Positions 27,101 to 64,000 of a stretch of 64,000 nt of DNA are shown here, in pieces. Each line of letters begins with the position of its first letter. The stretch's first letter is position 1. The stretch spans positions 54,064,001 through 54,128,000 of the forward strand of contig NC_135804.1 of NCBI RefSeq assembly GCF_964213995.1, given 5' to 3'. A program made the position numbers and the translations under genes. Below the pieces are notes generated by a model. That model had not been told where the DNA came from. It worked only from the letters and a program-made list of their open reading frames with translations, and did not search any database. Source of the DNA: Mustelus asterias. Taxonomy: Eukaryota.

Positions 27101-28865
27101 TGCTTGCTGGAGTAATTGTAAAGATATGACTTTCTGAATTCATGATGGGTCCTTCTCTGATCTTAACACTGACAACTCTAAGTCCCAGTTAATCAGTTTC
27201 TCAATCAAGCGTTTGTTTACTTCCAACTCCGTCTGAAACATTAACCTTTACAATTTGAAAAAGGAAATACAATACCATTGTGCTCACAGGCTTCAGTGGA
27301 AATCTATTGTGGGTTAAATGATTTGCATTATTGCAGGGAAGTGATCTCTGACCTAATTCCCTCAATATTGCCTTTCAGTTGTCTGTAGTTGGGTGTCAAA
27401 TCACTTCCTGCCTTTGCCACTTGCTCAACATGAGCCACTCTAGAAGAAATGGGTGAATGTATTGACATGATTCTTGGCAGTGGAAATGATATGAAGTCTA
27501 ATGTACACATTTGTTTTTAGAATTGCAGTGCTACATGTGCTTGAAGGAATAGTCACTGTATCAATGACTCTATATGAAAGCTCCAAGTATGAGAATGCTT
27601 ATGTGGAGTTGCCAGTTCTCTCTTGGACCGAGCGACTGTACATCAGTCTGAAAATTGAACCAGGAGAAAATAATTTTTTTGACTTGACAATAAATGATTG
27701 CTGGGCTACACCAACAAAAAATCCAGATGCCTTGCCCCAGTATTATTTAATTAAGAATGGGTAAGTAAAATGTACTTTACCTGGCATAGTGCCCTAACAT
27801 ATTAAGGTTGTTGCTGGTATGACCTTTATCCACACTTGAGACCCATTTTCCAAATGCTTGCATCTATTGGCATTGTAGATAGTGAATCACAATGAGGTAG
27901 TGAATAATTGCTCGCTAGATTTTCTATTTTGTCCTTGCTGACATATTAAATGCCTTCACATACCTGAGTTTTAATCTGCCCCAATACTGTAAACAACTTT
28001 TATTTCTCATTAGATGCCCTACTGATGAAACTGTGCAATATCACAATCAAATTGGAAATGAGACGATGGCCAACTTCAGTGTGCAGATGTTTCGATTTGT
28101 GAAGTATCCAGTAGTGTTCTTGCATTGCAGAACTGAGATTTGTTCACCTGACAGCTTGGAACCTTGTATGATTGTAAGTTGCACTTCCCAATATCTAACT
28201 TTGATCAAACTAATGTATAGTAGCAGCATTTAAATTTTCACCAATTACTTTTAATAGGACTGTCCTGGCCTAGCACTGAAGACCAAAAGGGATGTTAACA
28301 CTCAGTATGAAGGGTTATTGACTTATGGACCCATTCATTGGACTCGCACTAAAACACGTGTGCATGAAGTTGGTAAACCTAGTAAGTTTTTTAAATTTCA
28401 TGCAACTGGGACAACACAACAATTCCTGTTGCCACCCCTTAACTTTCCATTTAAGACAGTGATGCCCAAGGTTGATGCATCTAATAAGTGATTCTGCTCC
28501 CAGATGACTTTGCACAGTACCTATCAACTGAAGTTTGTCATTTGTAATTATCTGCAAGTACTGTGACCTCCATCTGATTTATATGGATGTCACATCTGTT
28601 GCATAGTTCAGCAAACACCATGTCCAACCTGAGCTTTATGCTAGGTAATCCAAGTTTGAGAATTCTTGGGCAATTAATTGGCCAGACAATTCAGCTTAAG
28701 TGAGCAATGCTCAATTTATCACAGCTTCTGTGACACTTTTTTCCTTCTGCAGACTTGATGCTTGCTACAGTTCCTGGTATTGTTGTGATATCGTCCATGG
28801 TGTTCCTTGTCCTTGCAATTACTTTGGCTAAAGTAATGAAGAGGGGACCAGCTAGAGTCATTTGA
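18195..28865 (+). CDS. EGF + ZP-domain transmembrane glycoprotein gene (ZPD/uromodulin/GP2-like), 9 coding exons, 387 aa
   Basis: join(18195-18197,18278-18338,19558-19659,21965-22170,24406-24560,27521-27760,28014-28173,28258-28381,28753-28865) = 1164 nt, open, all phases compatible; signal peptide, EGF, ZP-N, ZP-C, KTKR site, TM helix, stop TGA. Confidence 0.88.
18278..18338 (+). CDS. ZP gene exon 2, signal peptide
   Basis: ALFKVLTLLFCGAFVITHCS; ttttgcag acceptor, gtaagt donor, phase 0-1. Confidence 0.85.
18815..19148 (-). mobile_element. V-SINE variant with an alternative 3' tail
   Basis: V-core and head like HE1, but the tail (ctaggggattttcacagtaac...gcctacttgtgacact) differs; the same tail occurs near 51370-51440, 54615-54685 and 60210-60280. 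Confidence 0.7.
19558..19659 (+). CDS. ZP gene exon 3, EGF-like domain
   Basis: CDPNPCKNEGTCSIVNDVAQCKCVHGLTGETCE, six-Cys EGF spacing, phase 1-1. Confidence 0.93.
19958..21405 (-). mobile_element. CR1 LINE 3' half in ZP intron 3
   Basis: ORF 20398-21039 [10 protein letters not shown]...KFADD...LEYCAQFWSPY; tail aagaacataagaa. Confidence 0.92.
21965..22170 (+). CDS. ZP gene exon 4, ZP-N first half
   Basis: DIKMDVMCKQTYIKVSV...GAC...SSCGTVLV; polypyrimidine ctag acceptor, gtaaga donor, phase 1-0. Confidence 0.9.
22440..22768 (-). mobile_element. HE1/V-SINE-type SINE
   Basis: Near-identical to 4532-4881. Confidence 0.9.
23520..24100 (-). mobile_element. Decayed L2-like LINE 3' fragment
   Basis: Reverse complement resembles 14400-14880 and the 3' tail motif also seen near 34880-34960 and 37150-37220. 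Confidence 0.5.
24406..24560 (+). CDS. ZP gene exon 5, ZP-N second half (GC donor)
   Basis: SNATHIMYMNGLQTKQMTGIITRLPSEAIDFTCIYHRQRTVQLKFPIQPKT carries the ZP-N N.TH..Y.N, ITR and F.C.Y motifs; catag acceptor; donor ac|GCAAGT gives the required phase 2. Confidence 0.88.
24792..25135 (-). mobile_element. HE1/V-SINE-type SINE
   Basis: Near-identical to 4532-4881. Confidence 0.92.
25295..26020 (+). mobile_element. CR1 LINE 3' fragment, same subfamily as 19958-21405 in opposite orientation
   Basis: ATVQRDLGVLVHELQKLSLQVI...EQVGKWN, nearly the same as the intron-3 copy. Confidence 0.92.
27521..27760 (+). CDS. ZP gene exon 6, ZP-C start
   Basis: IAVLHVLEGIVTVSMTLYESSKYENAY...INDCWATPTKNP...YYLIKNG; CWATP is a ZP-C hallmark; phase 2-2. 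Confidence 0.95.
28014..28173 (+). CDS. ZP gene exon 7, ZP-C
   Basis: CPTDETV...FSVQMFRFVKYPVVFLHCRTEICSPDSLEPCMI; phase 2-0. Confidence 0.95.
28258..28381 (+). CDS. ZP gene exon 8, furin-type site and external hydrophobic patch
   Basis: DCPGLALKTKRDVNTQYEGLLTYGPIHW...; phase 0-1. Confidence 0.9.
28753..28865 (+). CDS. ZP gene exon 9, transmembrane helix and short basic tail
   Basis: LMLATVPGIVVISSMVFLVLAITLAKVMKRGPARVI*; ttccttctgcag acceptor. Confidence 0.9.
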
Positions 28866-35784: not shown

Positions 35785-36014
35785 ATGGAGAAGGGGCTGG
35801 GAGAGGAGGGTTGTCTCGCAGCTGCAGCTCTGGCACTGGAAAAATTTCAGGACGGGTCCGGGGGCTGCCCGGCTTCTCGCTTCACTTCCATCGATGCCGA
35901 CTGCCTGCAGCAGCCGAAGCGCATCGGCTCTGGGGGTTTTGGCGACGTTTACAAAGCGCGGCACCGGAGCTGGAGCACTTGGGTAGCGATAAAGTCAATG
36001 AGAATGAACCGAAA
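35785..36014 (+). CDS. RIP-family kinase exon 1 (G-loop, VAIK)
   Basis: agcATGg Kozak; RIGSGGFGDVYKARHRSWSTWVAIK; donor aa|gtatgg, phase 2. An upstream in-frame ATG at 35704 cannot be excluded. Confidence 0.88.
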
Positions 36015-38402: not shown

Positions 38403-38715
38403 TGATGCGCGTGAGTTATTGGAAGAAGCAGAGAAGATGCACAAGGCACAATTTGAGCACGTTCTTCGGCTATATGGATTCACTAAATGGTCCTTGGGGA
38501 ATGGAACTCCATCGCTTGGCTTGGTAACTGAATTCATGGAGAATGGATCATTGGATAAACTCCTTGAGCACTATGCCGTCCCTTGGCCTCTTCGCCTGCG
38601 TTTTGCATATGAGATCGCTTTAGGAGTGAACTACCTACATAACCTCAAGCCAGCCCTCTTTCACCATGACCTGAAACCTGCCAATATTCTCCTGAACAAG
38701 GACTATCGGGTTAAG
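38403..38715 (+). CDS. RIP-family kinase exon 2 (alphaC to catalytic loop)
   Basis: DARELLEEAEKM...LVTEFMENGSL...VPWPLRLRF...HHDLKPANILLNKDYRVK; phase 2-0. Confidence 0.95.
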
Positions 38716-40536: not shown

Positions 40537-40586
40537 CTATGGAATTGTCATCTGGGAGATACTAACCTGTCAAACGCCTTATAAAA
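40537..40586 (+). CDS. RIP-family kinase exon 4
   Basis: (S)YGIVIWEILTCQTPYK, 50 nt, phase 2-1. Confidence 0.93.
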
Positions 40587-40924: not shown

Positions 40925-41083
40925 ATGCTGTAAATTCCCAGCACTTAAAACTTTGTGTGGAAAATGGTGGTCGGCCAGACATTAAGGATATTCCTATTGA
41001 AAGACCGGAATCATCTGAAGTACTTGTTGACTTGATGGAAAAATGTTGGCGTGAGAACCCTGATGAACGTCCGACCTTTTTAA
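40925..41083 (+). CDS. RIP-family kinase exon 5
   Basis: AVNSQHLKLCVENGGRPD...LMEKCWRENPDERPTFL, phase 1-1. Confidence 0.93.
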
Positions 41084-43032: not shown

Positions 43033-43109
43033 AGTGCGTATATGATCTTGAACTAAAACAGTCCAATGAACAGGAGCTTCAATTTGCAATCCGTACGCTG
43101 ACCCAACAG
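43033..43109 (+). CDS. RIP-family kinase exon 6 (kinase C-terminal helix)
   Basis: (K)CVYDLELKQSNEQELQFAIRTLTQQ continues RPTFL as in RIP kinases; ttttgtcacag acceptor, cag|gtacag donor, phase 1-0. Confidence 0.82.
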
Positions 43110-44050: not shown

Positions 44051-47000
44051 ACAACATAGAACATTACAGCGCAGTTCAGGCCCTTCGGCCCTCGATGTTG
44101 CGCTGACCTGTGAAACCAATCTAAAGCCCATCTGACCTACACTATTCCAATATCATCCATATGTTTATCCAATGACCATTTAAATGCTCTTAATGTTGGC
44201 GAGTCCACTACTGTTGCAGGCAGGGCATTCCACGCCCTTACTACTCTCTGAGTAAAGAACCTACCTCTGACATCTGTTCTATATCTATCACCCCTCAATT
44301 TAATGCTATGTCCCCTCATGCCAGCCATCACCATCCGAGGAAAAAGGCTCTCACTGTCCACCCTACCTAATCCTCTGATCATCTTGTATGCCTCCATTAA
44401 GTCACCTCTTAACCTTCTTCTCTCTAACGAAAACAGCCTCAAGTCCCTCAGCCTTTCCTCATAAGACCTTCCCACCATACCAGGCAACAGCCTGGTAAAT
44501 CTCCTCTGCACCCTTTCCAATGCTTCCACATCCTTCCTATAATGCGGTGACCAGAACTGTACGCAATACTCCAAGTGCGGCCGCACCAGAGTTTTGTACA
44601 GCTGCAACATGACCTCATGGCTCTGAAACTCAATCCCTCTACCAATAAAAGCTAACACACCGTACGCCTTCTTAACCCTATCAACCTGGGTGCCAACTTT
44701 CAGGGATCTATGCACATGGACACTGAGATCTCTCTGCTCATCCACACTACCAAGTATCTTACCATTAGCCCAGTACTCTGTATTCCTGTTACTCCTTCCA
44801 AAGTGAATCACCTCTCACTTTTTACTGCATTAAACTCAATTTGCCACCTCTCAACCCAGCTCTGCAGCTTATCTATGTCCCTCTGTAACCTGCAACATCC
44901 TTCCGCACTGTCCACAACTCCACCGACTTTAGTGTCATCCGCAAATTTACTAATCCATCCTTCTACGCCCTCATCCAGGTCATTTATAAAAATGACAAAC
45001 AGCAGTGGCCCCAAAACAGATCCTTGCGGTACACCACTAGAACTGAACTCCAGGATGAACATTTCCCATCAACCACCACCCTCTGTCTTCTTACAGCTAG
45101 CCAATTCCTGATCCAAACCGCTAAATCACCCTCAATCCCATGCCTCCGTATTTTCTGCAATAGCTTACCGTGGGGAACCTTATCAAACGCTTTACTGAAA
45201 TCCATATACACCACATCAACTGCTTTACCCTTATCCACCTCTTTGGTCACCTTCTCAAAGAACTCAAAGGTTTGTGAGGCACGACCTACCCTTTACAAAA
45301 CCGTGCTGACTATCCCTAATCAAATTATTCCTTTCTAGATGATTATAAATCCTATCTCTTATAATCCTTTCCAAAGCTTTGCCCACAACAGACGTAAGGC
45401 TCACTGGTCTATAATTACCAGGGTTGTCTCTACTCCCCTTCTTGAACAAGGGGACAACATTTGCTTTCCTCTAGTCTTCTGGCACTATTCCTGTAGACAA
45501 TGACGACATAAAGGTCAAAGCCAAAGGCTCTGCAATCTCCTCCCTAGCCTCCCAGAGAATCCTAGGATAAATCCCATCTGGCCCAGGGGACTTATCTATT
45601 TTCACACTTTCCAGAATTGCTAACACCTCCTCCTTATGAACCTCAATCCTGTCTAGTCTAATAGCCTGTATCTCAGTATTCTCGACAACATTGTCTTTTT
45701 CCTGTGTGAATACTGATGAAAAATATTCATTTAGCGCCTCTCCTATCTCTTCGGGCTCCACGCACAACTTCCCACTACTGTCCTTGACTGGCCCTAATCT
45801 TACCCTAGTCATTCTTTTATTCCTGACATACCTATAGAAAGCTTTAGGGTTTTCCTTGATCCTACCTGCCAAAGACTTCTCATGTCCCCTCCTGGCTCTT
45901 CTTAACTCTCTCTTTCGGTCCTTCCTGGCTAACTTGTAACTCTCAAGCGCCCTAACTGAGCCTTCATGTCTCATCTTTACATAAGTCTCCTTCTTCCTCT
46001 TCACAAGAGATTCAACTTCTTTAGTAAACCACGGTTCCCTCGCTCGACCACTTCCTCCCTGCCTGACAGGTACATACTTATCAAGGACACGCAGTAGCTG
46101 TTTCTTGAACAAGCTCCACATTTCAATTGTGCCCATCCCCTGCAGTTTCCTTCCACATCCTATGCATCCTAAATCTCGCCTAATCGCATCATAATTTCCT
46201 TTCCCCCAGCTGTAACTCTTGTCCTGCAGTGTATACCTATCCCTTTCCATCGCTAAAGTAAACGTAACCGAATTGTGGTCACTATCACCAAAGTGCTCAC
46301 CTGCCTCCAAATCTAACACCTGGCCTGGTTCATTACCCAGTACCAAATCCAATGTGGCCTCGCCTCTTGTTGGCCTATCTACATACTGTGTCAGGAAACC
46401 CTCCTGCACACATTGGACAAACCTGACCCATCTAAAGTACTCGAACTATAGCGTTTCCAGTCAATATTTGTAAAGTTAAAGTCCCCCATAACAACTACCC
46501 TGTTACTTTCGCTCCTATCCAGAATCATCTTTGCAATCCTTTCCTCTACATCTCTGGAACTTTTCGGAGGCCTATAGAAAACTCCCAACAGGGTGACCTC
46601 TCCTTTCCTGTTTCTAACCTCAGCCCATACTACCTCAGTAGACGAGTCCTCATCAGAAGTCCTTTCTGCCACCGTAATACTGTCCTTGACCAACAATGAT
46701 GTGGAGATGCCGGCGTTGGACTGGGGTGAACACAGTAAGAGTTTTAACAACACCAGGTTAAAGTCCAACAGGTTTATTTGGTAGCAAAGCTAATGGTGTT
46801 TGCTACCAAATAAACCTGTTGGACTTTAACCTGGTGTTGTTAAAACTCTTACTGTTTTGACTAACAATGCCACACCTCCCCCTCTTTTACCACCTTCCCT
46901 GATCTTACTGAAACATCTAAACCCCGGAACCTGCAACAACCATTCCTGTCCCTGCTCTATCCATGTCTCCGAAATGGCCACAACATCGAAGTCCCAGGTA

Positions 47001-48342: not shown

Positions 48343-48415
48343 GTGCCACATCTTGTGGATAGGTATATTGACCGGAGCACTCCAGGATCCAGCGAAGCCA
48401 CCTGTGACCTCTGCG
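48343..48415 (+). CDS. Probable kinase exon 7 (linker)
   Basis: Long polypyrimidine tract plus tgcag acceptor; VPHLVDRYIDRSTPGSSEATCDLC; g|gtaacc donor; phase 0-1 bridges exon 6 to phase-1 micro-exons; no homology support. Confidence 0.55.
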
Positions 48416-50311: not shown

Positions 50312-51021
50312 GTGTTTTACAGAAAACTCTATCTGTGTCTCTGTTTCTTGACAGTATTATTGAGTATAGGTTATTCATGAAAGGCCACCTTCTCAACCTT
50401 ACCCCTCGCCTGAGGCGCGGTGAGCCTCAGGTTAAATCAGCCTACAGTCATTTGGGACTATGGCAACTTTTACCTGTTGGGTATGATACCTGAATGAGCT
50501 TTTCCTTCCCTACCTGGTGTGGATGCTTTGGGATGATATCACCAGATGGATTCCCTTAGACTTGAGCATGGATTTTCTGAACCGGCTTCTCGGTATTAAT
50601 CTGCACACAGCAAATACCAGTGACGCTGAACAGACATTTTTCAAGGACTAATACCAGCACTGGATGGTCAGCCCATTGTTCGCTGTAAATGGTGCACAGA
50701 AGTACAAGTGCTTTTGAAGGGAGTCATTGCTAAGCACTGGGACATTCCCAGTTCCTCGTTTACTTACACTTTGAAGAGGGAAGAAGCTTTTTAAAAATCA
50801 GATGTTGTCCATCTGCTGCAGTTCCCCTGAGTCACCACTTGGCAGCACTATAGGCCCTTGCCTTCACATTGTACAGAAATGCATCCGTCAGTGTTGTCAA
50901 CACTGACTTGATCTGTGTTTTAAATGGTCTCCACTCAGGAATGCAGACATCCCTCTGTTGAAAGATAAATTCCTGTTACAGTATCTCCTGCTTATTGCGA
51001 ACTGTTTTCTGTTTTGTTTAG

Positions 51022-51060
51022 AACCAGTTCAGGAACAGAATGAAGCCACCAACCTTCTGG
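51022..51060 (+). CDS. 39-nt symmetric micro-exon, copy 1
   Basis: ttttgtttag acceptor, g|gtgagt donor; phase-1 reading (E)PVQEQNEATNLL. Confidence 0.7.
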
Positions 51061-51879
51061 GTGAGTCAGTGATTGTCTCCATGGAAACAAGTATTAAGTA
51101 GGCGCCCCAACACTGTGTTTCCCTAAAAGCTTTGTTTTAATCTTGGGGCCTTTCCAATCTCTTCTCTGTGCTGCTTGAACTAATCTCTTCTGGTGTCAAA
51201 GTAATTGGTCTTAGTTTATGATCATTGTTCCTGATCTGTGTGTTGTATGCATGTACACGTGTGTTCGTGTGTGCATGCATGTTGCTCTGTGTGCACAGAC
51301 GTGCAGGTTAGGTGCATTGCCCATGCCACATTCTCCCTCAGTGTACCTGAACAGGAGCTGCAGTGTGGGGACTAGGGGATTTTCACAGTAACTTCATTGC
51401 AGTGTTAATGTAAGCCTACTTGTGACACTAAATAAACGTGTATGTGTACACATGCATGTGTGTTTATACATGTTTCTGTTTGCACGTGTATGTATGCACA
51501 TGTATGCATGCATATTCATGCACCAGAGCCTATTTCATTCAAAGAGCATGGGGTGCTGACTGTGAGGTTCAGAGCCCGGAGCTCAGCTTTAAACTGTTTG
51601 GGTGAGTGAGGACTGGAGAGATTTCACCTGTATTTGTATGGTCTGCTCTCACTTATTATCTCAGCTGCCTGTCTGTGTCTTGAGGTGGCAAGAGAGAAAC
51701 AGTGACTAAAGTAAGTGGGGCTTTGCAAATGGGACCTGACAACATAGTACAAAGTGAGTACGTTCACAGCAGTGTAATGGGAGCAGCACAGTTTGGGATG
51801 GACATGAGACTTTAGAGAAGATGCAGAAAGGATGAATGGGAGATTCCGGGATGAAAGACTTTGGTTACTTGAATAGATT

Positions 51880-53690
51880 GATCATTTATATAATCAGCAA
51901 ATTTACCAACCATACCTTCAGTCCCTTCATCCAAGTCATTTGCACAATTTCTAAAATGTTGAGGCCCCAGCACTGACCCCTGTGGCGCATCACTTGTTAC
52001 AACTTGCCAGACAGTAAATGGTTCATTTATGCTTACTCTCTGTTTCCTATTAGTTAGCCAATTGTCTATCCATGCCAATGCTACCCCCATGCCATGAACT
52101 TTTGCTTTCTGTTATAACCTTTGATGCGGCACCTTATTAAATGCATTCTGGAAATCTTAAGTACAGTACATCCACTGGTTCCCCTTTATCAACAGCATGT
52201 GTGACTCATTGAAAAACCCCAATAAATTTTCTGATTTCATGATTTTCTTTTCACAAAACCATATCGACTGCCTGATTACCTTGAATTTTTCCAAGTACCC
52301 TATTGTATTGTTATTAATAATGGCTTCGCTATATCAGATGCACACTAACTGTTCTGCCGTTTCCTTCTCTCTGTTTCCCTCCCTTTTTGAATAACGGAGT
52401 TACATTCACTATTTTTCAATCTAATGGGGCCTTCCCTGAATCTAGGGAATTAAAAAAATTAAAACGGATGCATCGTCTATCTCATTAGCCATGTCTTTGA
52501 AGACCCTAAGTTGAATCCATCAGGAGTCAGAGATTTTGTCAGCCTCCAACTCCAACGATTTGCGAAGTACCACTTCACTGGAGATAATAATTTTCCTGGT
52601 ATCTTCCTTCCCTTCCATTTCCTGACTCACAGCTCTTTTTTGGATGTTACTTGTGTCATCTATGGTGAAGACTGATGCAAAATACCTGTGTAATTAGTCT
52701 CCATCTCCTTATTTTCCATTATTAACTCCCCAGACTCACTTTCCAGAGGATCAATGCTCCTTTGTTAGCTCTTATGTTTTTAAAATACCTATAGAAACTC
52801 TCACTATGTGTTTTCATGTTTCTAGCTCGCTTTCCCTCTTACTCTTTTTCCCTTCTTTATCATTTATTTAGTCATTCTTTGCTGTTTTTAATATTTGTTG
52901 CATTTTAAAATTCTTCTGACCTGTCACCTTTTTTGCACAACAAAATGCTTTCTCTTTTAAGTTTGATGCTATGTTTTTTAGTTAACTGTAGATGGTGGGT
53001 TCCTGCCCTCGGAATTTTTCTTTCTCATTGGAATGTATCTATTCTGTGTATTCTGAATTATTCTCTTAAATGTCTGCCACTGCATCTCTTGTGACCTATC
53101 CCTTAACCTAATTTGCCAGCTCACCTTGGCCAGTTCTGCTTTTGTGTCCTATTAATCACCCTTATAAGTTTAAAATACTAATCTTGGCACCGTTCTTCTC
53201 TTCCTCAAACGGAATTTAAAATTCAATCATATTATGACCGTTGCTACCTAGGGGTGCCTTTTACTAAAAGGTCATCAATGAATCCTACCTTGCTACACAA
53301 TACCAGGTTTAGTATAGCCTGCTCTCTGGTTGGCTTTAGAATTGCTTTTCTACAAAACTATCCTGAAAACATTCTATGAAATCCTCTTCTGTGCTACCTT
53401 TGCCTACCTGATCTCTCCAGCCTATACATTGCTCCCACAGTTGACATCTTGCCATTATAATTTCTCATCTCTACCCAAACAGCTTCTACATCTGGCCTCC
53501 TGAACTTCGGCCTTTGGTCTCTATTTTACTAATACCATCATTAATAAATGGAGCCATACCTCCAAGATTCCCTAGCTTCCTGACCTTCCTAAATGTCATG
53601 TACTGTTCAACACTCGGGTCCCAACCGATGTCATCCTCCGGCCTTGTCTCTGTAATGGCTATCAGATTGTATTTATTTATTTCTATTAGT
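51880..53690 (-). mobile_element. Decayed CR1 within duplication unit 1 (paralogous copies at about 55530-58960 and 61125-64000)
   Basis: WIDNWLTNRKQRV...APQGSVLGP...KFAD (51812-52090); YNLIAITET endonuclease text (53486-53929). Confidence 0.85.
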
Positions 53691-53914
53691 GTTATTTCCT
53701 CCTGCACTGTTTGACCCTGATAGAGGAGAGGGTTTGAGACTGTTGCACTCAATACTGACAAAGGTTTAGCTCGAGGGATGACTTTCAGTAGATTGCAATG
53801 AGATAGCTGCTCTGCTATGTGAAAACCCTGAGTCCTCCACATACTGCAGTTCCTCTGAGCCACCAATAGGTAGCAGTACCTGCCCATGATTTTGGATTGT
53901 ACAGCATTACATAC

Positions 53915-54108
53915 AGTAAGAAGTCTCACTACACTAGGTTAAAGTCCAACAGGTTTATTTGGTAGCACAAGATTTCGGAGTGTCGCTCCTCCTAAGAAGG
54001 AGCGACATTCCGAAAGCTTGTGCTACCAAATAAACCTGTTGGACTTTAACCTGGTGTTGTGAGACTTCTTACTGTGCTGACCCCAGTCCAACGCCGGCAT
54101 CTCCACAT
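53915..54108. mobile_element. Penelope-derived fold-back insertion (duplicated at about 59510-59703)
   Basis: About 78-bp inverted arms centred near 53993; 13-bp TSD cagcattacatac (53902-53914 and 54109-54121). Confidence 0.85.
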
Positions 54109-54256
54109 CAGCATTACATACGGCAGTGTTGTGAAAAATGACTTGACCTGTGTTTTAAATGGCCCCCACTCAGGAATGCAGAGCTCCTTCTGTTCAAAAA
54201 TGAATTCATGTTACAATGTCTACTTCTAACTGCTAACCATTCTCTGTTTTATTTAG

Positions 54257-54295
54257 AACCAGTTGAGGAACAGAATGAACACAAACACTTTGTGG
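54257..54295 (+). CDS. 39-nt symmetric micro-exon, copy 2
   Basis: ttttatttag acceptor, g|gtgagt donor; (E)PVEEQNEHKHFV. Confidence 0.7.
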
Positions 54296-55962
54296 GTGAG
54301 TCAGTGATTGTCTCCCTGAAAACAAGTATTAAGTAGGCGCCCCGACACTGTGTTTCCCTAAAAGCTTTGTTTTAATCTTGGGGCCTTTCCAACCTCTTGT
54401 CTGTGCTGCTTGAGCTAATCTCTTCTTGTGTCAAAGTAATTGGTCTTAGTTTATGATCATTGTTCCTGATCCGTGTGTTGTATGCACGCACGCGTATGTT
54501 TGTGTGTGAACGTGTGTGAACGCATGTTGCTCTGTGTGCACAGACGGGCTGGTTAGGTGCATTGCCCATGCCACATTCTCCCTCAGTGTACCTGGACAGG
54601 CGCCGCAGTGTAGCAACTAGGGGATTTTCACAGTAACTTCATTGCAGTATTAATGTAAGCCTACTTGTGACACTAAATAAACTTTAAAACGTGTATGTGT
54701 ACACATGCATGTGTGTGTATATGTGTTTCTGTTTGCACATGTGTATGTATGCATGCATATTCATGAACCAGAGCCTATTTCATTCAAAGAGCATGGGGTG
54801 CTGACTGTGAGGTTCAGAGCCCGGAGCTCAGCTTTAAACTGTTTGGGTGAGTGAGGACTGGAGAGATTTCACCTGTATTTGTATGGTCTGCTCTCACTTA
54901 TTATCTCAGCTGCCTGTCTGTGTCTTGAGGTGGCAAGAGAGAAACAGTGACTAAAGTAAGTGCGGCTTTGCAAATGGGACCTGACAACATAGTACAAAGT
55001 GAGTATGTTCACAGCAGTGTAATGGGAGCAGCACAGCTTAGGATGGACATGAGACTTTAGAGAAGATGCAGAAAGGATTAATGGGAGATTCCGGGATGAA
55101 AGACTTTGGTTACTTGAATAAATTGTAGAGACTAGTCTATTCTCCTACAGGAGGGACGGTTGACAGGAGGTTTAATAGAGATGTTCAAAGTTATGAGAGC
55201 TTTAGACAGAGTAGAAATGGAAAAGCCGTTCCCATTGGTGGAAGGGTCAAAGACCAGAGGCTATCAATTTAAAATGATTGGCAAATAAAACAATGATGAC
55301 AAGAGGAAAAACATTTTTGCCCAGTAAGTGGTTAGGATCTGGATTTCACTGCCCGAGAGTGCGGTGGGGGAAGATTCAATTGTGGCTTTAGGAAGAGAAG
55401 TACCTGAAGAGAGAAGATTGTCAGGGTTGAGGTGAAAAAGTGCGGGGAGGGGGTTAAACTAACTGAATCATTCTTGCACAGAGCCAGCATGGAGACAAAA
55501 GGCTAAATTGCCTCCCCACACGAATTTATGAACATACGAATTAAGAGTAGAAGTAGGCCATTCAGCCCCTTCATGATAGATTGGATTGTAACTTCAACTT
55601 CACATTCCCTCCTACTCCTTATAACTTTTCACCCCTTTACTTATCAAGGATCTATCTACCTCTGTCTTAAAAATGCTCCAAGACTCTGCTTCCGACCCCT
55701 TTTGAGGGAGGGAGTCTGAAAGACTCAGCACCATCTAAGAGAAATAAAAATCTTCTCATCTCTGCCTGAGATTGGCGACCCCTTATTTTTAAGCAGTGAC
55801 CCCTTGTTCTAGATTCTCCTACAAGAGAAAACATCCTCTTCACACCTCCCTTGTCAAGACCCCTCAGGATCTTGTATGTTTCAATCAAGTGGCCTCTTAG
55901 TCTTCTAAACTCCAGTGGATGCAAGCCTAGTCTGTCTAACCTTTCCTCATAAAACAACCAAT

Positions 55963-56301
55963 GGGCGGCACGGTAGTACAGAGTTAGCACTGCTGCTTCA
56001 CAGCTCCAGGGTCCCGGGTTCGATTCCTGGCTCGGGTCACTGTCTGTGTGGAGTTTGCACATTCTCCTCGTGTCTGCGTGGGTTTCCTCCGGGTGCTCCG
56101 GTTTCCTCCCACAGTCCAAAGATGTGCGGGTTAGGTTGATTGGCCAGGTTAAAAATTGCCCCTTAGACTCCTGAGATGCGTAGGTTAGAGGGATTAGCGG
56201 GTAAATATGTGGGGGTAGGGCCTGGGTGGGATTGTGGTCGGTGCAGACTCGATGGGCCGAATGGCCTCCTTCTGCACTGTAGGGTTTCTATGATTTCTAT
56301 G
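55963..56301 (+). mobile_element. Young HE1/V-SINE-type SINE specific to duplication unit 2
   Basis: Interrupts the CR1 ORF; the empty site aaaacaacccacccattcc is at about 61546-61564 in unit 3. Confidence 0.93.
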
Positions 56302-57459
56302 AACCCACCCATTCCTGGTATTAGTTTAGTAAACCTTCTCTGAACTGCTTCCAGTGCATTTATATCCTTTCTTAAATAAAGTGACCAATACTGTACACAG
56401 TACTCCAGATGTGGTCTCACTAATACCCAGTACTGAAGCACAAAAGCATAACTGTCCTACTTTTGTTATCAATTCCCCTCACAATAAATTGTAACATTCT
56501 ATTAGCTTTCCTAATTACTTGTTGTACCTGTATACAAATCTTTTGTGATTCACGCACTAGGACACCCTGAACCCCCTACATCTCAGAGCTCGGCACTCAC
56601 TCAACATTTAGATAATTTGCTTTTTTTTATTCTTCCTGCCAAAATGGACATTTTCACATTTTCTTACATTATACTTCAAATCTAGATTTTTGCTCACTTA
56701 TTCATCGTATCCATGTCCCTATCTAGCCTCATTACGCCATCTTCACAACTTTGTTTCCTGCATATCTTTATATAATCAGCAAATGTACCAACCATACCTT
56801 CAATCCCTTCATCCAAGTTATTTGTATAATTTCTAAAAAGTTGAGGCCCCAGCACTGACCCCTGTGGCGCATCACTTGTTACAGTAACTTGCCAACCAGT
56901 AATTGGTTCATTTATACTTACTCTGTTTCCTGTTAGCTAGCCAATTGTCTATCCATGCCAATGTTACCCCCTACACCATTAACTTTTATTTTCTGTTATA
57001 ACCTTTGATGCGGCACCTTATTAAATGCATTCTGGAAATCTAAGTACAGTACATCCATTGGTTCCCCTTTATCAACAGCATGTGTGACTCATTGAAAAAC
57101 CCCAATAAATTTTCTGATTTCATGATTTTCTTTTCACAAAATCATATTGACTGCCTGATTACCTTGAATTTTTCCAAGTACCCTATTGTATTGTTATTAC
57201 TAACAGCTTCCCTATGTCAGATGTACACTAACTGTTCTGCCGTTTCCTGCTCTGTGTCCCTCCTTTTTGAATAATGGAGTTACATTCACTATTTTTCAAT
57301 CTAATGGGGCGTTCCCTGAATCTAGGGAATTAAAAAAATTAAAACGGATGCATCAACTATCTCATTAGGCATGTCTTTGAAGACCCTAAGTTGAATCCAT
57401 CAGGAGTCAGAGATTTTGTCAACCTGCAACTCCTACTATTTGCGAAGTACCACTTCACC

Positions 57460-57853
57460 GGCAGCACATTGGCACAGTGGTTAGCACTGCTGCCTCAGAG
57501 CGCCAGGGACCTGGGTTCAATTCCGGCCTCGGGTGACTGTCTGTGTGGAGTTTGCACATTCTCCCCATGTCTGTGTGGGTTTCCTCCGAATGCTCTGTTC
57601 CTCCCACAGTCCAAAAATGTGCAGGTTAGGTGGATTGGCCTTGCTAAATTGCCTGTTTGTGCCCCAAGATGTGTTGATTAGGGGGCTTACTGGGGTGAAT
57701 ACTTGGGGTTACAGGGAACAGGTCTGGGTGGGATTGCTCCTTAGTGTCAGGGGGATTACGTGGGGTTACAAGGATAGGGCCTGGGTGGGATTGTTGTCAG
57801 TGCAGACTCAATGGGCCAAATGGTGGCCCCCTGCACTGTAATGGATTCTATGA
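57460..57853 (+). mobile_element. V-SINE-type SINE shared by units 2 and 3
   Basis: Near-identical copy at 62708-63100; empty site near 52575-52595 in unit 1. Confidence 0.9.
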
Positions 57854-59131
57854 TTATAAATTTCTTGAGATCCTCCTTCCCTTCCATTTCCTGACTCACA
57901 GCTCTTTTTTGGATGTTACTTGTGTCATCTATGGTGAAGACTGATGCAAAATACCTGTGTAATTAGTCTCCATCTCCTTATTTTCCATTATTAACTCCCC
58001 AGACTCACTTTCCAGAGGATCAATGCTCCTTTGTTAGCTCTTATCTTTTTAAAATACCTATAGAAACTCTCACTATGTGTTTTCATGTTTCTAGCTCGCA
58101 TTCTCTCTTACTCTTTTTCCCTTCTTTATCATTTATTTAGTCATTCTTTGCTGTTTTTAATATTTGTTGTTTTTAAAATTCTTCTGACCTGTCACCTAAT
58201 TTTGCACAACTAAATGCTTTCTCTTTTAAGTTTGATGCTATGGTTTTTAGTTAACTGTAGATGATGGGTTCCTGCCCTCGGAATTTTTCTTTCTCACTGG
58301 AATGTATCTATTCTGTGTATTCTGAATTATTCTCTTAAATGTCTGCCACTGCATCTCTTGTGACCTATCCCTTAACCTAACTTGCCAGCTCACCTTGGCC
58401 AGCTCTGCTTTTGTGTCCTATTAATCACCCTTATAAGTTTAAAATACAAATCTTGGACCCGTTCTTCTCTTCCTCAAACGGAATTTAAAATTCAATCATA
58501 TTATGATCGTTGCTACCTAGGGGTGCCTTTTACTAAAAGGTCATCAATGAATCCTACCTTGCTACACAATACCAGGTTTAGTATAGCCTGCTCTCTGGTT
58601 GGCTTTAGAATTGCTTTTCTACAAAACTATCCTGAAAACATTCTATGAAATCCTCTTCTATGCTACCTTTGCCTACCTGATCTCTCCAGCCTATACATTG
58701 CTCCCACAGTTGACATCTAGCCATTATAATTTCTCATCTCTACCCAAACAGCTTCTACATCTGGCCTCCTGAACTTCGGTCTTTCGTCTCTATTTTACTA
58801 ATACCATCATTAATAAACGGAGCCATCCCTCCAAGATTCCCTAGCTTCCTGACCTTCCTAAATGTCATGTACTGTTCAACACTCAGGTCCCAACCGATGT
58901 CATCCTTCAGCCTTGATTCTGTAATGGCTATCAGATTGTATTTATTTATTTCTATTAGTGTTATTTCCTCCTGCACTGTTTGACCCTGATAGAGGAGAGG
59001 GTTTGAGACTGTTGCACTCAATACTGACAAAGGTCTAGCTCGAGGGATGACTTTCAGTAGATTGCAATGAGATAGCTGCTCTGCTATGTGAAAACCCTGA
59101 GTCCTCCACATGCTGCAGTTCCTCTGAGCCA

Positions 59132-59453
59132 CAGAGTTTCACTGGCTGTCTTGTCTGGAGACAATACACATCTTTTTAGCCTGTCTTGATGCTCTCTCCA
59201 CTCCCATTGTTTTGTTTCTTAAAGACTGGATTAGTTGTAAGTATTCGCATTCCAACCATTATTCATGTAAATTGAGTCTGTGTCTTATAAGTTCTGTTTG
59301 TGAACAGAATTCCCACTCACCTGAAGAAGGGGCTCAGAGCCTCGAAAGCTTGTGTGGCTTTTGCTACCAAATAAACCTGTTGGACTTTAACCTGGTGTTG
59401 TTAAACTTCTTACTGTGTTTACCCCAGTCCAACGCCGGCATCTCCACATCATG
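59132..59453 (+). mobile_element. Penelope-like 3' end insertion
   Basis: Reverse-complement similarity to about 34985-35255; ccac flanks; empty site gagccaccaatagg near 53857-53870. Confidence 0.8.
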
Positions 59454-59851
59454 ACCACCAATAGGTAGCAGTACCTGCCCATGATTTTGGATTGTACAGC
59501 ATTACATACAGTAAGAAGTCTCACTACACTAGGTTAAAGTCCAACAGGTTTATTTGGTAGCACAAGATTTCGGAGTGTCGCTCCTCCTAAGAAGGAGCGA
59601 CATTCCGAAAGCTTGTGCTACCAAATAAACCTGTTGGACTTTAACCTGGTGTTGTGAGACTTCTTACTGTGCTGACCCCAGTCCAACGCTGGCATCTCCA
59701 CATCAGCATTACATACGGCAGTGTTGTGAAAAATGACTTGACCTGTGTTTTAAATGGCCCCCACTCAGGAATGCAGAGCTCCTTCTGTTCAAAAATGAAT
59801 TCATGTTACAATGTCTACTTCTAGCTGCTAACCATTCTCTGTTTTGTTTAG

Positions 59852-59890
59852 AACCAGTTGAGGAACAGAATGAACACAAACACTTTGTGG
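59852..59890 (+). CDS. 39-nt symmetric micro-exon, copy 3
   Basis: Identical to copy 2, splice sites intact. Confidence 0.7.
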
Positions 59891-62707
59891 GTGAGTCAGT
59901 GATTGTCTCCCTGAAAACAAGTATTAAGTAGGCGCCCCGACACTGTGTTTCCCTAAAAGCTTTGTTTTAATCTTGGGGCCTTTCCAACCTCTTGTCTGTG
60001 CTGCTTGAGCTAATCTCTTCTTGTGTCAAAGTAATTGGTCTTAGTTTATGATCATTGTTCCTGATCCGTGTGTTGTATGCACGCACGCGTATGTTTGTGT
60101 GTGAACGTGTGTGAACGCATGTTGCTCTGTGTGCACAGACGGGCTGATTAGGTGCATTGCCCATGCCACATTCTCCCTCAGTGTACCTGGACAGGCGCCG
60201 CAGTGTAGCAACTCGGGGATTTTCACAGTAACTTCATTGCAGTATTAATGTAAGCCTACTTGTGACACTAAATAAACTTTAAAACGTGTATGTGTACACA
60301 TGCATGTGTGTGTATATGTGTTTCTGTTTGCACATGTGTATGTATGCATGCATATTCATGAACCAGAGCCTACTTCATTCAAAGAGCATGGGGTGCTGAC
60401 TGTGAGGTTCAGAGCCCGGAGCTCAGCTTTAAACTGTTTGGGTGAGTGAGGACTGGAGAGATTTCACCTGTATTTGTATGGTCTGCTCTCACTTATTATC
60501 TCAGCTGCCTGTCTGTGTCTTGAGGTGGCAAGAGAGAAACAGTGACTAAAGTAAGTGCGGCTTTGCAAATGGGACCTGACAACATAGTACAAAGTGAGTA
60601 TGTTCACAGCAGTGTAATGGGAGCAGCACAGCTTAGGATGGACATGAGACTTTAGAGAAGATGCAGAAAGGATTAATGGGAGATTCTGGGATGAAAGACT
60701 TTGGTTACTTGAATAAATTGTAGAGACTAGTCTATTCTCCTACAGGAGGGACGGTTGACAGGAGGTTTAATAGAGATGTTCAAAGTTATGAGAGCTTTAG
60801 ACAGAGTAGAAATGGAAAAGCCGTTCCCATTGGTGGAAGGGTCAAAGACCAGAGGCTATCAATTTAAAATGATTGGCAAATAAAACAATGATGACAAGAG
60901 GAAAAACATTTTTGCCCAGTAAGTGGTTAGGATCTGGATTTCACTGCCCGAGAGTGCGGTGGGGGAAGATTCAATTGTGGCTTTAGGAAGAGAAGTACCT
61001 GAAGAGAGAAGATTGTCAGGGTTGGAGTGAAAAAGTGTGGGGAGGGGGTTAAACTAACTGAATCATTCTTGCACAGAGCCAGCATGGAGACAAAAGGCTA
61101 AATTGCCTCCCCACACGAATTTATGAACATACGAATTAAGAGTAGAAGTAGGCCATTCAGCCCGTTCATGATAGATTGGATTGTAACTTCAACTTCACAT
61201 TCCCTCCTACTCCTTATAACTTTTCACCCCCTTACTTATCAAGGATCTATCTACCTCTGTCTTAAAAATGCTCCAAGACTCTGCTTCCGACCTCTTTTGA
61301 GGGAGGGAGTCTGAAAGACTCAGCACCATCTAAGAGAAATAAAAATCTTCTCATCTCTGCCTGAGATTGGCGACCCCTTATTTTTAAGCAGTGACCCCTT
61401 GTTCTAGATTCTCCTACAAGAGAAAACATCCTCTTCACACCTCCCTTGTCAAGACCCCTCAGGATCTTGTATGTTTCAATCAAGTGGCCTCTTAGTCTTC
61501 TAAACTCCAGTAGATGCAAGCCTAGTCTGTCTAACCTTTCCTCATAAAACAACCCACCCATTCCTGGTATTAGTTTAGTAAACCTTCTCTGAACTGCTTC
61601 CAATGCATTTATATCCTTTCTTAAATAAAGTGACCAATACTGTACACAGTACTCCAGATGTGGTCTCACTAATACCCAGTACTGAAGCACAAAAGCATAA
61701 CTGTCCTACTTTTGTAATCAATTCCCCTCACAATAAATTGTAACATTCTATTAGCTTTCCTAATTACTTGTTGTACCTGTATACAAATCTTTTGTGATTC
61801 ATGCACTAGGACACCCAGAACCCCCTACATCTCAGAGCTCGGCACTCACTCAACATTTAGATAATTTGCTTTTTTTTATTCTTCCTGCCAAAATGGACAT
61901 TTTCACATTTTCCTACATTATACTTCAAATCTAGATTTTTGCTCACTTATTCATCGTATCCATGTCCCTATCTAGCCTCATTACGCCATCTTCACAACTT
62001 TGTTTCCTGCATATCTTTATATAATCAGCAAATGTACCAACTATACCTTCAATCCCTTCATCCAAGTTATTTGTATAATTTCTAAAAGGTTGAGGCCCCA
62101 GCACTGACCCCTGTGGCGCATCACTTGTTACAACGTGCCAACCAGTAATTGGTTCATTTATACTTACTCTGTTTCCTGTTAGCTAGCCAATTGTCTATCC
62201 ATGCCAATGTTACCCCCTACACCATTAACTTTTATTTTCTGTTTTAACCTTTGATGCGGCACCTTATTAAATGCCTTCTGGAAATCTAAGTACAGTACAT
62301 CCACTGGTTCCCCTTTATCAACAGCATGTGTGACTCATTGAAAAACCCCAATAAATTTTCTGATTTCATGATTTTCTTTTCACAAAATCATATCGACTGC
62401 CTGATTACCTTGAATTTTTCCAAGTACCCTATTGTATTGTTATTAATAACAGCTTCCCTATGTCAGATGTACACTAACTGTTCTGCCGTTTCCTGCTCTG
62501 TGTCCCTCCTTTTTGAATAATGGAGTTACATTCACTATTTTTCAATCTAATGGGGCGTTCCCTGAATCTAGGGAATTAAAAAAATTAAAACGGATGCATC
62601 AACTATCTCATTAGGCATGTCTTTGAAGACCCTAAGTTGAATCCATCAGGAGTCAGAGATTTTGTCAACCTGCAACTCCTACTATTTGCGAAGTACCACT
62701 TCACCGG

Positions 62708-63100
62708 CAGCACATTGGCACAGTGGTTAGCACTGCTGCCTCAGAGCGCCAGGGACCTGGGTTCAATTCCGGCCTCGGGTGACTGTCTGTGTGGAGTTTG
62801 CACATTCTCCCCATGTCTGTGTGGGTTTCCTCCGAATGCTCTGTTCCTCCCACAGTCCAAAAATGTGCAGGTTAGGTGGATTGGCCTTGCTAAATTGCCT
62901 GTTTGTGCCCCAAGATGTGTTGATTTAGGGGGCTTACTGGGGTGAATACTTGGGGTTACAGGGAACAGGACTGGGTGGGATTGCTCCTTAGTGTCAGGGG
63001 GATTACGTGGGGTTACAAGGATAGGGCCTGGGTGGGATTGCTGTCAGTGCAGACTCAATGGGCCAAATGGTGGCCCCCTGCACTGTAATGGATTCTATGA
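62708..63100 (+). mobile_element. V-SINE-type SINE (duplicate of 57460-57853)
   Basis: Near-identical sequence and flanks. Confidence 0.9.
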
Positions 63101-64000
63101 TTATAAATTTCTTGAGATCCTCCTTCCCTTCCATTTCCTGACTCACAGCTCTTTTTTGGATGTTACTTGTGTCATCTATGGTGAAGACTGATGCAAAATA
63201 CCTGTGTAATTAGTCTCCATCTCCTTATTTTCCATTATTAACTCCCCAGACTCACTTTCCAGAGGATCAATGCTCCTTTGTTAGCTCTTATCTTTTTAAA
63301 ATACCTATAGAAACTCTCACTGTGTTTTCATGTTTCTAGCTCGCATTCTCTCTTACTCTTTTTCCCTTCTTTATCATTTATTTAGTCATTCTTTGCTGTT
63401 TTTAATATTTGTTGTTTTTAAAATTCTTCTGACCTGTCACCTATTTTTGCACAACTAAATGCTTTCTCTTTTAAGTTTGATGCTATGGTTTTTAGTTAAC
63501 TGTAGATGATGGGTTCCTGCCCTCGGAATTTTTCTTTCTCACTGGAATGTATCTATTCTGTGTATTCTGAATTATTCTCTTAAATGTCTGCCACTGCATC
63601 TCTTGTGACCTATCCCTTAACCTAACTTGCCAGCTCACCTTGGCCAGCTCTGCTTTTGTGTCCTATTAATCACCCTTATAAGTTTAAAATACAAATCTTG
63701 GACCCGTTCTTCTCTTCCTCAAACGGAATTTAAAATTCAATCATATTATGATCGTTGCTACCTAGGGGTGCCTTTTACTAAAAGGTCATCAATGAATCCT
63801 ACCTTGCTACACAATACCAGGTTTAGTATAGCCTGCTCTCTGGTTGGCTTTAGAATTGCTTTTCTACAAAACTATCCTGAAAACATTCTATGAAATCCTC
63901 TTCTATGCTACCTTTGCCTACCTGATCTCTCCAGCCTATACATTGCTCCCACAGTTGACATCTAGCCATTATAATTTCTCATCTCTACCCAAACAGCTTC

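Follow-up and report, generated by a model that had tools for sequence, protein, structure and literature searches.

Tandem 39-nucleotide exons in the linker of a RIP-type kinase gene with a death domain in Mustelus asterias, and the TRAF-type motifs they may carry

We describe an array of small, frame-keeping exons in a RIP-type kinase gene that begins in a 64,000-nucleotide (nt) window of the Mustelus asterias genome (assembly GCF_964213995.1, contig NC_135804.1, positions 54,064,001 to 54,128,000, forward strand). The array is real in the assembly and is recurrent across cartilaginous fishes. It lies in the linker between the N-terminal kinase and the C-terminal death domain, and we put at about even the chance that it is a docking strip of variable valency for TRAF proteins rather than a plain spacer, with each near-identical exon contributing one predicted TRAF1/2/3/5 site. 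Tandem duplication of symmetric exons is an already known process; the novelty lies in the gene that hosts it and in the likely design of one TRAF site per exon.

Joined in order, 14 exons with AG/GT ends give a translation identical to P0001, the 521-amino-acid (aa) 'RIPK2-like' NCBI model of this species; the NCBI gene models used throughout are predictions. An earlier note on this DNA had proposed that each tandem duplication lengthens the linker of a RIP-type kinase by 13 aa, and this is supported. The exons are listed below, the first seven as placed by the exon-chain translation; extended coordinates run past the 64-kb window end, and an L005 position is the extended coordinate minus 64000.

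35785..36014, + strand: kinase exon 1, with the ATG, the Gly loop and the VAIK lysine
38403..38715, + strand: kinase exon 2, with the HHDLKPAN catalytic loop
39327..39472, + strand: kinase exon 3, with DFG and YMPPE
40537..40586, + strand: kinase exon 4
40925..41083, + strand: kinase exon 5
43033..43109, + strand: exon 6, helices after the kinase domain
48343..48415, + strand: exon 7, in which the linker begins; holds a conserved VD dipeptide and has a phase-1 end
51022..51060, + strand: m1, alpha-type 39-nt exon, EPVQEQNEATNLL, motif PVQE
54257..54295, + strand: m2, beta-type 39-nt exon, EPVEEQNEHKHFV
59852..59890, + strand: m3, 39-nt exon identical in sequence to m2
extended 64564-64602 (G000:C4:54128564), + strand: m4, original beta exon, EPVEEQNEHKHFA, with a unique 3' intron
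extended 66163-66213, + strand: m5, gamma unit, 51 nt in the NCBI model, strict motif lost
extended 67407-67445, + strand: m6, delta unit, ESVQNTSQEEIVK
extended 69512-69783, + strand: last coding exon, with the death domain and stop codon

The three 39-nt phase-1 exons that the earlier note had reported at 51022, 54257 and 59852 were confirmed with their peptides, each having the form AG-39 nt-GTGAGT. The fourth exon that it had predicted at about 64.8-65.1 kb exists but begins at 64564, about 240-540 nt earlier (unit 3 is without the insertions of units 1 and 2) and 564 nt beyond the window end. Past m4 lie m5, m6 and the death-domain exon, none of which the earlier note had reported. The spacings from m1 to m2, m2 to m3 and m3 to m4 are 3235, 5595 and 4712 nt, respectively. 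All six linker exons are of phase 1-1, so that any copy number keeps the reading frame. A search of the shark's own genome for the exon gave four matches among four candidates, all at one locus. A blastn comparison of 364 kb, made up of the window with 100 kb of upstream and 200 kb of downstream sequence, found no fifth near-identical copy, and the near-identical series ends at m4.

The two remaining units, m5 and m6, are older, diverged members of the array. Their 39-nt cores agree with m1 and m4 at 17-19 bases; shuffling gives p 0.002-0.013 for these four pairs and 0.053 for m5 against m6. A crude splice-site scan of 41.1-69.6 kb, based on approximate weight matrices, returned m1-m4 as the only phase-1 symmetric candidates and missed both. 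In m5, two in-frame acceptors lie 12 nt apart (L005:2163 and 2175, extended 66163 and 66175) and allow an exon of 51 or 39 nt, the 39-nt core from acceptor 66175 being EHGQEINSENCIA. At extended ~66930-67000 (L005:2930-3000) we observed a decayed 3' half of m5 with a donor; a matching acceptor was not seen there, and this m5-like copy is probably a dead unit of the array.

Orthologues were found in 20 cartilaginous fishes, including sharks, rays and a chimaera. Their linkers, compared as proteins without exon structure, mostly tile in 13-aa steps counted from the first unit. Two units are present in S. canicula and Callorhinchus; three in Heterodontus, Heptranchias, Rhincodon, Hemitrygon, Hypanus and Mobula; four in Cetorhinus, Carcharodon, S. 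torazame, C. punctatum and Stegostoma; five in C. plagiosum; and six in Mustelus. Linker blocks are duplicated in Pristiophorus and Leucoraja, the linkers of Rhinoraja and Narcine are irregular, and the Amblyraja model is truncated. The copy-variable linker suspected earlier is thus borne out between species, with two to six units. Since three units occur in distant lineages, the pattern suggests an ancestral elasmobranch state of three, followed by several separate gains and a loss.

The best-kept part of the unit is P-V-(Q/E)-E. The motifs PVQEQ in m1 and PVEEQ in m2-m4 all fit Px(Q/E)E plus a polar residue, giving Mustelus one strict motif in each of the four near-identical exons. The strict form Px[QE]E occurs in 19 of the 20 orthologues, the exception being Carcharodon (SVEE), and in 14/14 members of a one-per-genus set, compared with 3.0 after shuffling (maximum 10). 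It is found at 1.62 per 100 aa; for 145 other kinase proteins the figure is 0.029. Across the first units of 13 genera, P was kept in 13, V in 13, E/Q in 11 and E in 13, and of the 38 columns scored, only P, V and the last E never vary. TRAF motifs can also take the looser form (P/S/A/T)x(Q/E)E, for which we counted 73 matches against 18 +/- 4 in shuffled sequences. Between m1 and m4, codons 1-8 show a single change (Q to E) that keeps the motif, whereas all five of codons 9-13 are changed. The genome holds TRAF3/5/2-type genes. A TRAF6 motif was rejected: PxExx plus an acidic or aromatic residue was found in four carpet sharks only, and not in Mustelus. TRAFs are trimeric, and the major motif for TRAF1/2/3/5 consists of Px(Q/E)E and then a residue that is acidic or polar, PVQETL of CD40 being one case (passages of PMC6125299). 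The predicted motifs resemble those of CD40, CD30 and OX40 in being PVQE or PVEE plus a polar residue, and the exact PVQET of the CD40 TRAF2 site occurs in three species (Callorhinchus, Heptranchias and Pristiophorus). They differ in that those receptors carry one motif per tail of a trimer, whereas the motifs here would stand in tandem on one cytosolic chain, one per exon.

If the array is a docking strip, it could potentially act as follows. The exons would be spliced in, with one unit occasionally skipped, as the NCBI model and the relatives suggest. The death domain would recruit the kinase to TNF-receptor complexes or to complexes of the TRADD/FADD/RIPK1 type; in complex I of the TNF receptor, RIPK1 itself acts alongside TRADD and TRAF2 (PMC10492769, in part). 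Trimeric TRAFs would then be engaged by avidity, through multiple weak Px(Q/E)E sites along a flexible linker, leading to NF-kB/JNK signalling, so that copy number and exon skipping would set the docking valency. A model of ACT1 and TRAF6 offers a precedent for avidity from several TRAF sites (passages of PMC7459424).

Several observations weigh against this proposal. The motif is short, it was spotted after the sequences had been viewed, and it was counted in related orthologues; the shuffle counts therefore do not amount to independent tests. Silent sites agree as well throughout codons 1-8 of m1 and m4, which would fit a purine-rich splicing enhancer or gene conversion equally as well as protein constraint. 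The strict motif is absent in Carcharodon and was lost from m5, and the linkers of S. canicula and Callorhinchus contain only two units; high valency is therefore not required. The avidity precedent concerns TRAF6 on ACT1, not TRAF2/3, and the AlphaFold model of P0001 is poor (mean pLDDT, the predicted local distance difference test, 44; kinase low too) and cannot show linker disorder. Apart from these points, a complex prediction for the C-terminal part of shark TRAF3 (TRAF3-C) with linker residues 344-375 scored 0.01, in a run where controls were not folded and alignments not used, and speaks neither for nor against docking.

The strongest rival to docking, which we regard as possible but rather doubtful, is that the duplications are real and the units a neutral spacer, their number varying because they keep frame in a tolerant linker. 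The conserved 5' half would then reflect splicing enhancers, or a single motif would suffice. This explanation accounts for the conserved silent sites of codons 1-8, for unit numbers of two to six without obvious pattern and for 3' halves that diverge freely, and other multi-kb tandem duplications nearby point to a high mutational supply. It sits less well with the sole 5'-half change between m1 and m4, which keeps the motif, with a proline and valine kept in 13/13 genera, and with exact PVQET in three distant lineages including a chimaera. Because of the conserved TRAF-type motif, the units are probably more than the plain spacing that the earlier note had envisaged.

The same note had also described the intermediate regions of RIP kinases as targets of protease cleavage, and caspases do cut RIPK1, RIPK3 and RIPK4 (PMC10492769, in part). 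We rejected the repeats as added caspase sites, since m1-m4 contain no Asp. A conserved Asp lies upstream of the array, in the VD dipeptide of exon 7, which is matched in 15 of the 20 orthologues and may be a caspase site.

The growth of the array can be traced in the units formed by each exon and its following intron:

51022..54256, + strand: unit 1 (m1 and intron)
54257..59851, + strand: unit 2 (m2 and intron)
59852..64000 in the window, + strand: unit 3 (m3 and intron), continuing past the window end to extended 64563

Of 4711 bases aligned between units 2 and 3, 28 differ (0.6%), only one of them in the 1275 bases of the last segment; there are three indels besides, of 346, 326 and 207 nt. 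Units 1 and 2 differ at 125 of 3184 bases in a patchy manner (chi2 p 2e-7; 4.7, 6.0 and 2.7% in three segments), which would fit repeated exchange or conversion. Unit 1 lacks segments of 1637 and 390 nt that are present in unit 2, and a 207-nt palindromic insertion is common to both; unit 2 alone carries a 346-nt insertion resembling a short interspersed nuclear element (55956-56301) and a 326-nt insertion (59129-59454). The flanks of m1 and m4 are alike at 81-82% over ~130 nt upstream and ~80 nt downstream, which on the alignment is a remnant of an old duplication, and alpha- and beta-type units are found also in catshark and lamniform proteins.

By a hand count of alignment markers, 27 of 29 marker columns of m2 are of m4 type across ~95 nt of 5' flank plus the exon, and the m2/m3 intron is of m1 type from about +30 nt. 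Judged by these markers, m2 and m3 are recombinants that join an m4-like exon and 5' flank to an m1-like 3' intron, a make-up that is the mark of unequal crossing-over. Further along, the intron of unit 2 resembles unit 3 as far as 59112; beyond that point it has one base and the 207-nt insertion in common with unit 1 only. A direct repeat flanks this insertion, whose empty site is found in unit 3; two bases after it match unit 3 again, so the mosaic is not perfectly clean. A partly palindromic interspersed repeat family with a common tail was observed at 46700-46850, 53918-54124, 59129-59454 and 59513-59719, and one member, the 326-nt insertion, sits at the inferred crossover point. The array likely grew by unequal crossing-over with some conversion, a mechanism read from these sequence patterns. 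The alpha (m1) and beta (m4) exons would have misaligned through the ~250 nt of old similarity that surrounds them, a crossover just 3' of the donor site would have duplicated the intron and beta exon, and a later crossover in the 97%-identical 3' ends of the introns would have given the third beta copy.

It is improbable, in our judgement, that unit 2 or unit 3 represents a second haplotype left uncollapsed, in which case the genome would hold three near-identical exons and not four. With m2 and m3 identical and the units differing by only 0.6% (one in 1275 bases in the last segment), one copy could be an assembly artefact, and it counts against four real copies that this difference falls within the 0.22-0.95% heterozygosity of three other vertebrates (passages of PMC9516828). 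According to the same passages, same-scaffold false duplications still arise in long-read assemblies, but false duplicates are mostly separated by gaps, and no N occurs anywhere in the 364 kb, that is, no assembly gap lies between the copies. The switch from unit-3-like to unit-1-like sequence takes place within ~60 shared bases around the unique 326-nt insertion, too short for an overlap misjoin, and three large indels within 5 kb separate units 2 and 3. Even with one false copy, m1, m2, m4 and the variation between species stand. Two unplaced contigs were tried as a yardstick of allelic divergence, for which the alignments shown were satellite DNA.

Isoforms of relatives lend support to the alternative splicing that had been proposed, single units being skipped. 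Among nine species with several NCBI isoforms, three (C. plagiosum, Rhincodon and Mobula) have isoforms short of exactly one unit. A form shorter by one unit was also found in 1 of 12 linker-bearing skate Logan proteins (15 listed of 18 cluster members), whose contigs of ~2 kb must be spliced transcripts. A search for shorter relatives gave two proteins among 99 candidates and no houndshark transcript, and a search of sequencing runs with the death-domain exon listed 23 runs, of which four held at least half of its words. That the copies serve as alternatives, mutually exclusive or mostly skipped, without lengthening the protein is very improbable: human tandem duplicated exons can substitute for each other (PMC9741552, in part) and the evidence on inclusion comes from relatives rather than from transcripts of M. 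asterias, but m1-m4 all keep consensus splice sites 3-5.6 kb apart, swapping the identical m2 and m3 changes nothing, 11 of 12 skate transcripts include all units, and the NCBI model has all four near-identical exons. The array shares with the tandem exon duplications of that study the presence of neighbouring homologous exons from local duplication. The cases described in those passages are ancient substitution events, whereas the exons here appear additive, recent (0.6-4% intron divergence) and recurring in separate lineages.

The host gene is, on its sequence, none of RIPK1-5, but a kinase of the RIPK2-5 group with a death domain and without RHIM, CARD or ankyrin repeats. P0001 contains VAIK, HHDLKPAN, DFG and YMPPE, and with them the RIP-type catalytic Lys, HxD and DFG. 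A Pfam scan found the kinase and a death domain (PF00531, E 6.5e-15) and neither CARD nor ankyrin repeats, and the ankyrin motif had no match in the 364 kb around the gene. A RHIM-like tetrad after residue 280 was absent from 11 of 12 orthologues, the sole match being TQIG at the death-domain end in Narcine, and the genome has its single RHIM match on contig C2. The RHIM, CARD or ankyrin modules that the earlier note had named as partners of RIP kinases were rejected for this gene on these domain and motif scans, which show a death domain at the C-terminus instead.

When the P0001 kinase was searched against the PDB, RIPKs made up 32 of the 33 top rows, with RIPK4 (3e-88) and RIPK2 (5e-84) as best matches. 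In a midpoint-rooted tree of 56 kinases, with most comparators labelled by domain, the RIPK2-5 group (99/97) is separate from RIPK1 and includes all 12 orthologues as a single clade (100/96). A quick tree of a 25-row subset rejected grouping with vertebrate RIPK1 (approximately unbiased test, p-AU 0.019); grouping with RIPK3 had a p-AU of 0.378 and with RIPK4/5 of 0.293, and grouping with RIPK2 a support of 31. The kinase groups with RIPK3 in neither tree. Searched against the PDB, the death domain matched that of RIPK1 best (E 6e-11), and a death-domain tree, with ~23-40% identity to RIPK1, TRADD and invertebrate domains alike, did not separate inheritance from capture.

The gene thus has the layout of RIPK1, with an N-terminal RIP kinase, a long linker and, at the C-terminus, a death domain. 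It differs in having no RHIM, a kinase outside vertebrate RIPK1 and a linker made of 39-nt exons. Its kinase falls within the group of RIPK2/RIPK2B, RIPK3, RIPK4 and ANKK1 (RIPK5), no member being singled out by the trees as its sister, whereas a death domain stands in place of their CARD, RHIM or ankyrin repeats. The best-scoring full-length matches outside cartilaginous fishes, Branchiostoma P0057 and Lingula P0059 (kinase-RHIM-death domain), likewise pair a RIP kinase with a C-terminal death domain and adjoin the RIPK2-5 group in one of the two trees. Unlike the shark protein, they keep a RHIM-like tetrad and have neither the Px[QE]E motif nor 13-aa units.

A profile search of 1.84 billion representatives returned 150 rows, of which 49 (all <800 aa) were Pfam-scanned, 20 looked up and 19 named. 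Among the 49 scanned rows, no named bony vertebrate pairs this kinase with a death domain, which tests absence only to a limited extent, and the unnamed kinase-death-domain rows grouped in the tree either with RIPK1 or with invertebrate proteins. In lungfish, tarpon and trout, kinases of the RIPK3 clade (P0090, P0161 and P0165) were observed to end in CARD or pyrin domains, which points to recurrent tail swapping in the RIP kinase family. Elsewhere in the Mustelus genome, loci could be assigned by likeness to RIPK4 (C17), ANKK1 (C68), RIPK2 (C7) and a RIPK1-like gene with RHIM and death domain (C2). Two RIPK3-like kinase exons lie on each of two unplaced, satellite-rich contigs (L060/L061; G000:C2134, C1136), and a shark RIPK3 may be hidden in poorly assembled DNA.

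Databases name this RIP kinase paralogue inconsistently, the orthologues ranging from RIPK1-like through RIPK2- and RIPK4-like to ANKK1-like. A recent vertebrate survey by Fay et al. describes RIPK1-5 and RIPK2B, and the words shark, cartilaginous, chondrichth- and elasmobranch are absent from the main text (PMC12119088). Their supplementary file 4 places Rhincodon and Chiloscyllium orthologues in the RIPK1 column, with 2/6 accession stems matched. A literature search by titles and abstract starts, with few subscription journals, found no paper on the gene or the exon array.

We also observed several features in the surrounding DNA. Upstream, at window positions 19524-28230 (+ strand), lie exons for EGF, ZP-N and ZP-C domains of a gene that we take to be of the uromodulin/GP2 type. 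In the Rhinoraja model P0024 the kinase is joined to a ZP-like C-terminus, suggesting that skates have the EGF-ZP neighbour too. An adhesion G-protein-coupled receptor gene of the ADGRG subfamily faces the kinase gene downstream (L008:5014-5358, L009:4905-5303, L010:2950-3177, - strand), and a TRADD death-domain exon lies 1.05 Mb downstream (L046, G000:C4:55179303). ADGRG1/3/5 and TRADD are, we presume, on human 16q, paralogous to the RIPK3 region 14q11-12, which would make the gene a whole-genome-duplication sister of RIPK3. At L013-L020 (extended 153-222 kb) there are tandem units of ~10 kb, ~90-98% alike, with long 24-nt minisatellites and zinc-knuckle-like fragments. Open reading frames (ORFs) resembling integrase (L006:4608-4955, - strand) and retroviral env (L007:463-1545, + strand) lie ~9-16 kb downstream of the gene, and a 461-aa ORF with a DDE_Tnp_4 transposase domain (L034:5929-7311, + strand) lies just upstream of the window.

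Should the units prove to be only a spacer, the array would be an ordinary, well-documented case of tandem exon duplication in a gene for which we found no description. Otherwise, the natural series of two to six one-motif units across species and isoforms makes the relation between motif number and TRAF recruitment directly testable. We raise only tentatively the wider proposal that cartilaginous fishes keep an overlooked RIPK2-5-group kinase with an ancestral death domain, in which exon count, set by recombination and exon skipping, would be a tunable TRAF-docking dial for death-receptor/NF-kB signalling. Because it joins a RIPK2-5 kinase to a death domain, as the lancelet and brachiopod proteins do, the gene may show the RIPK2-5 ancestor as it was before CARD, ankyrin or RHIM-only tails arose.

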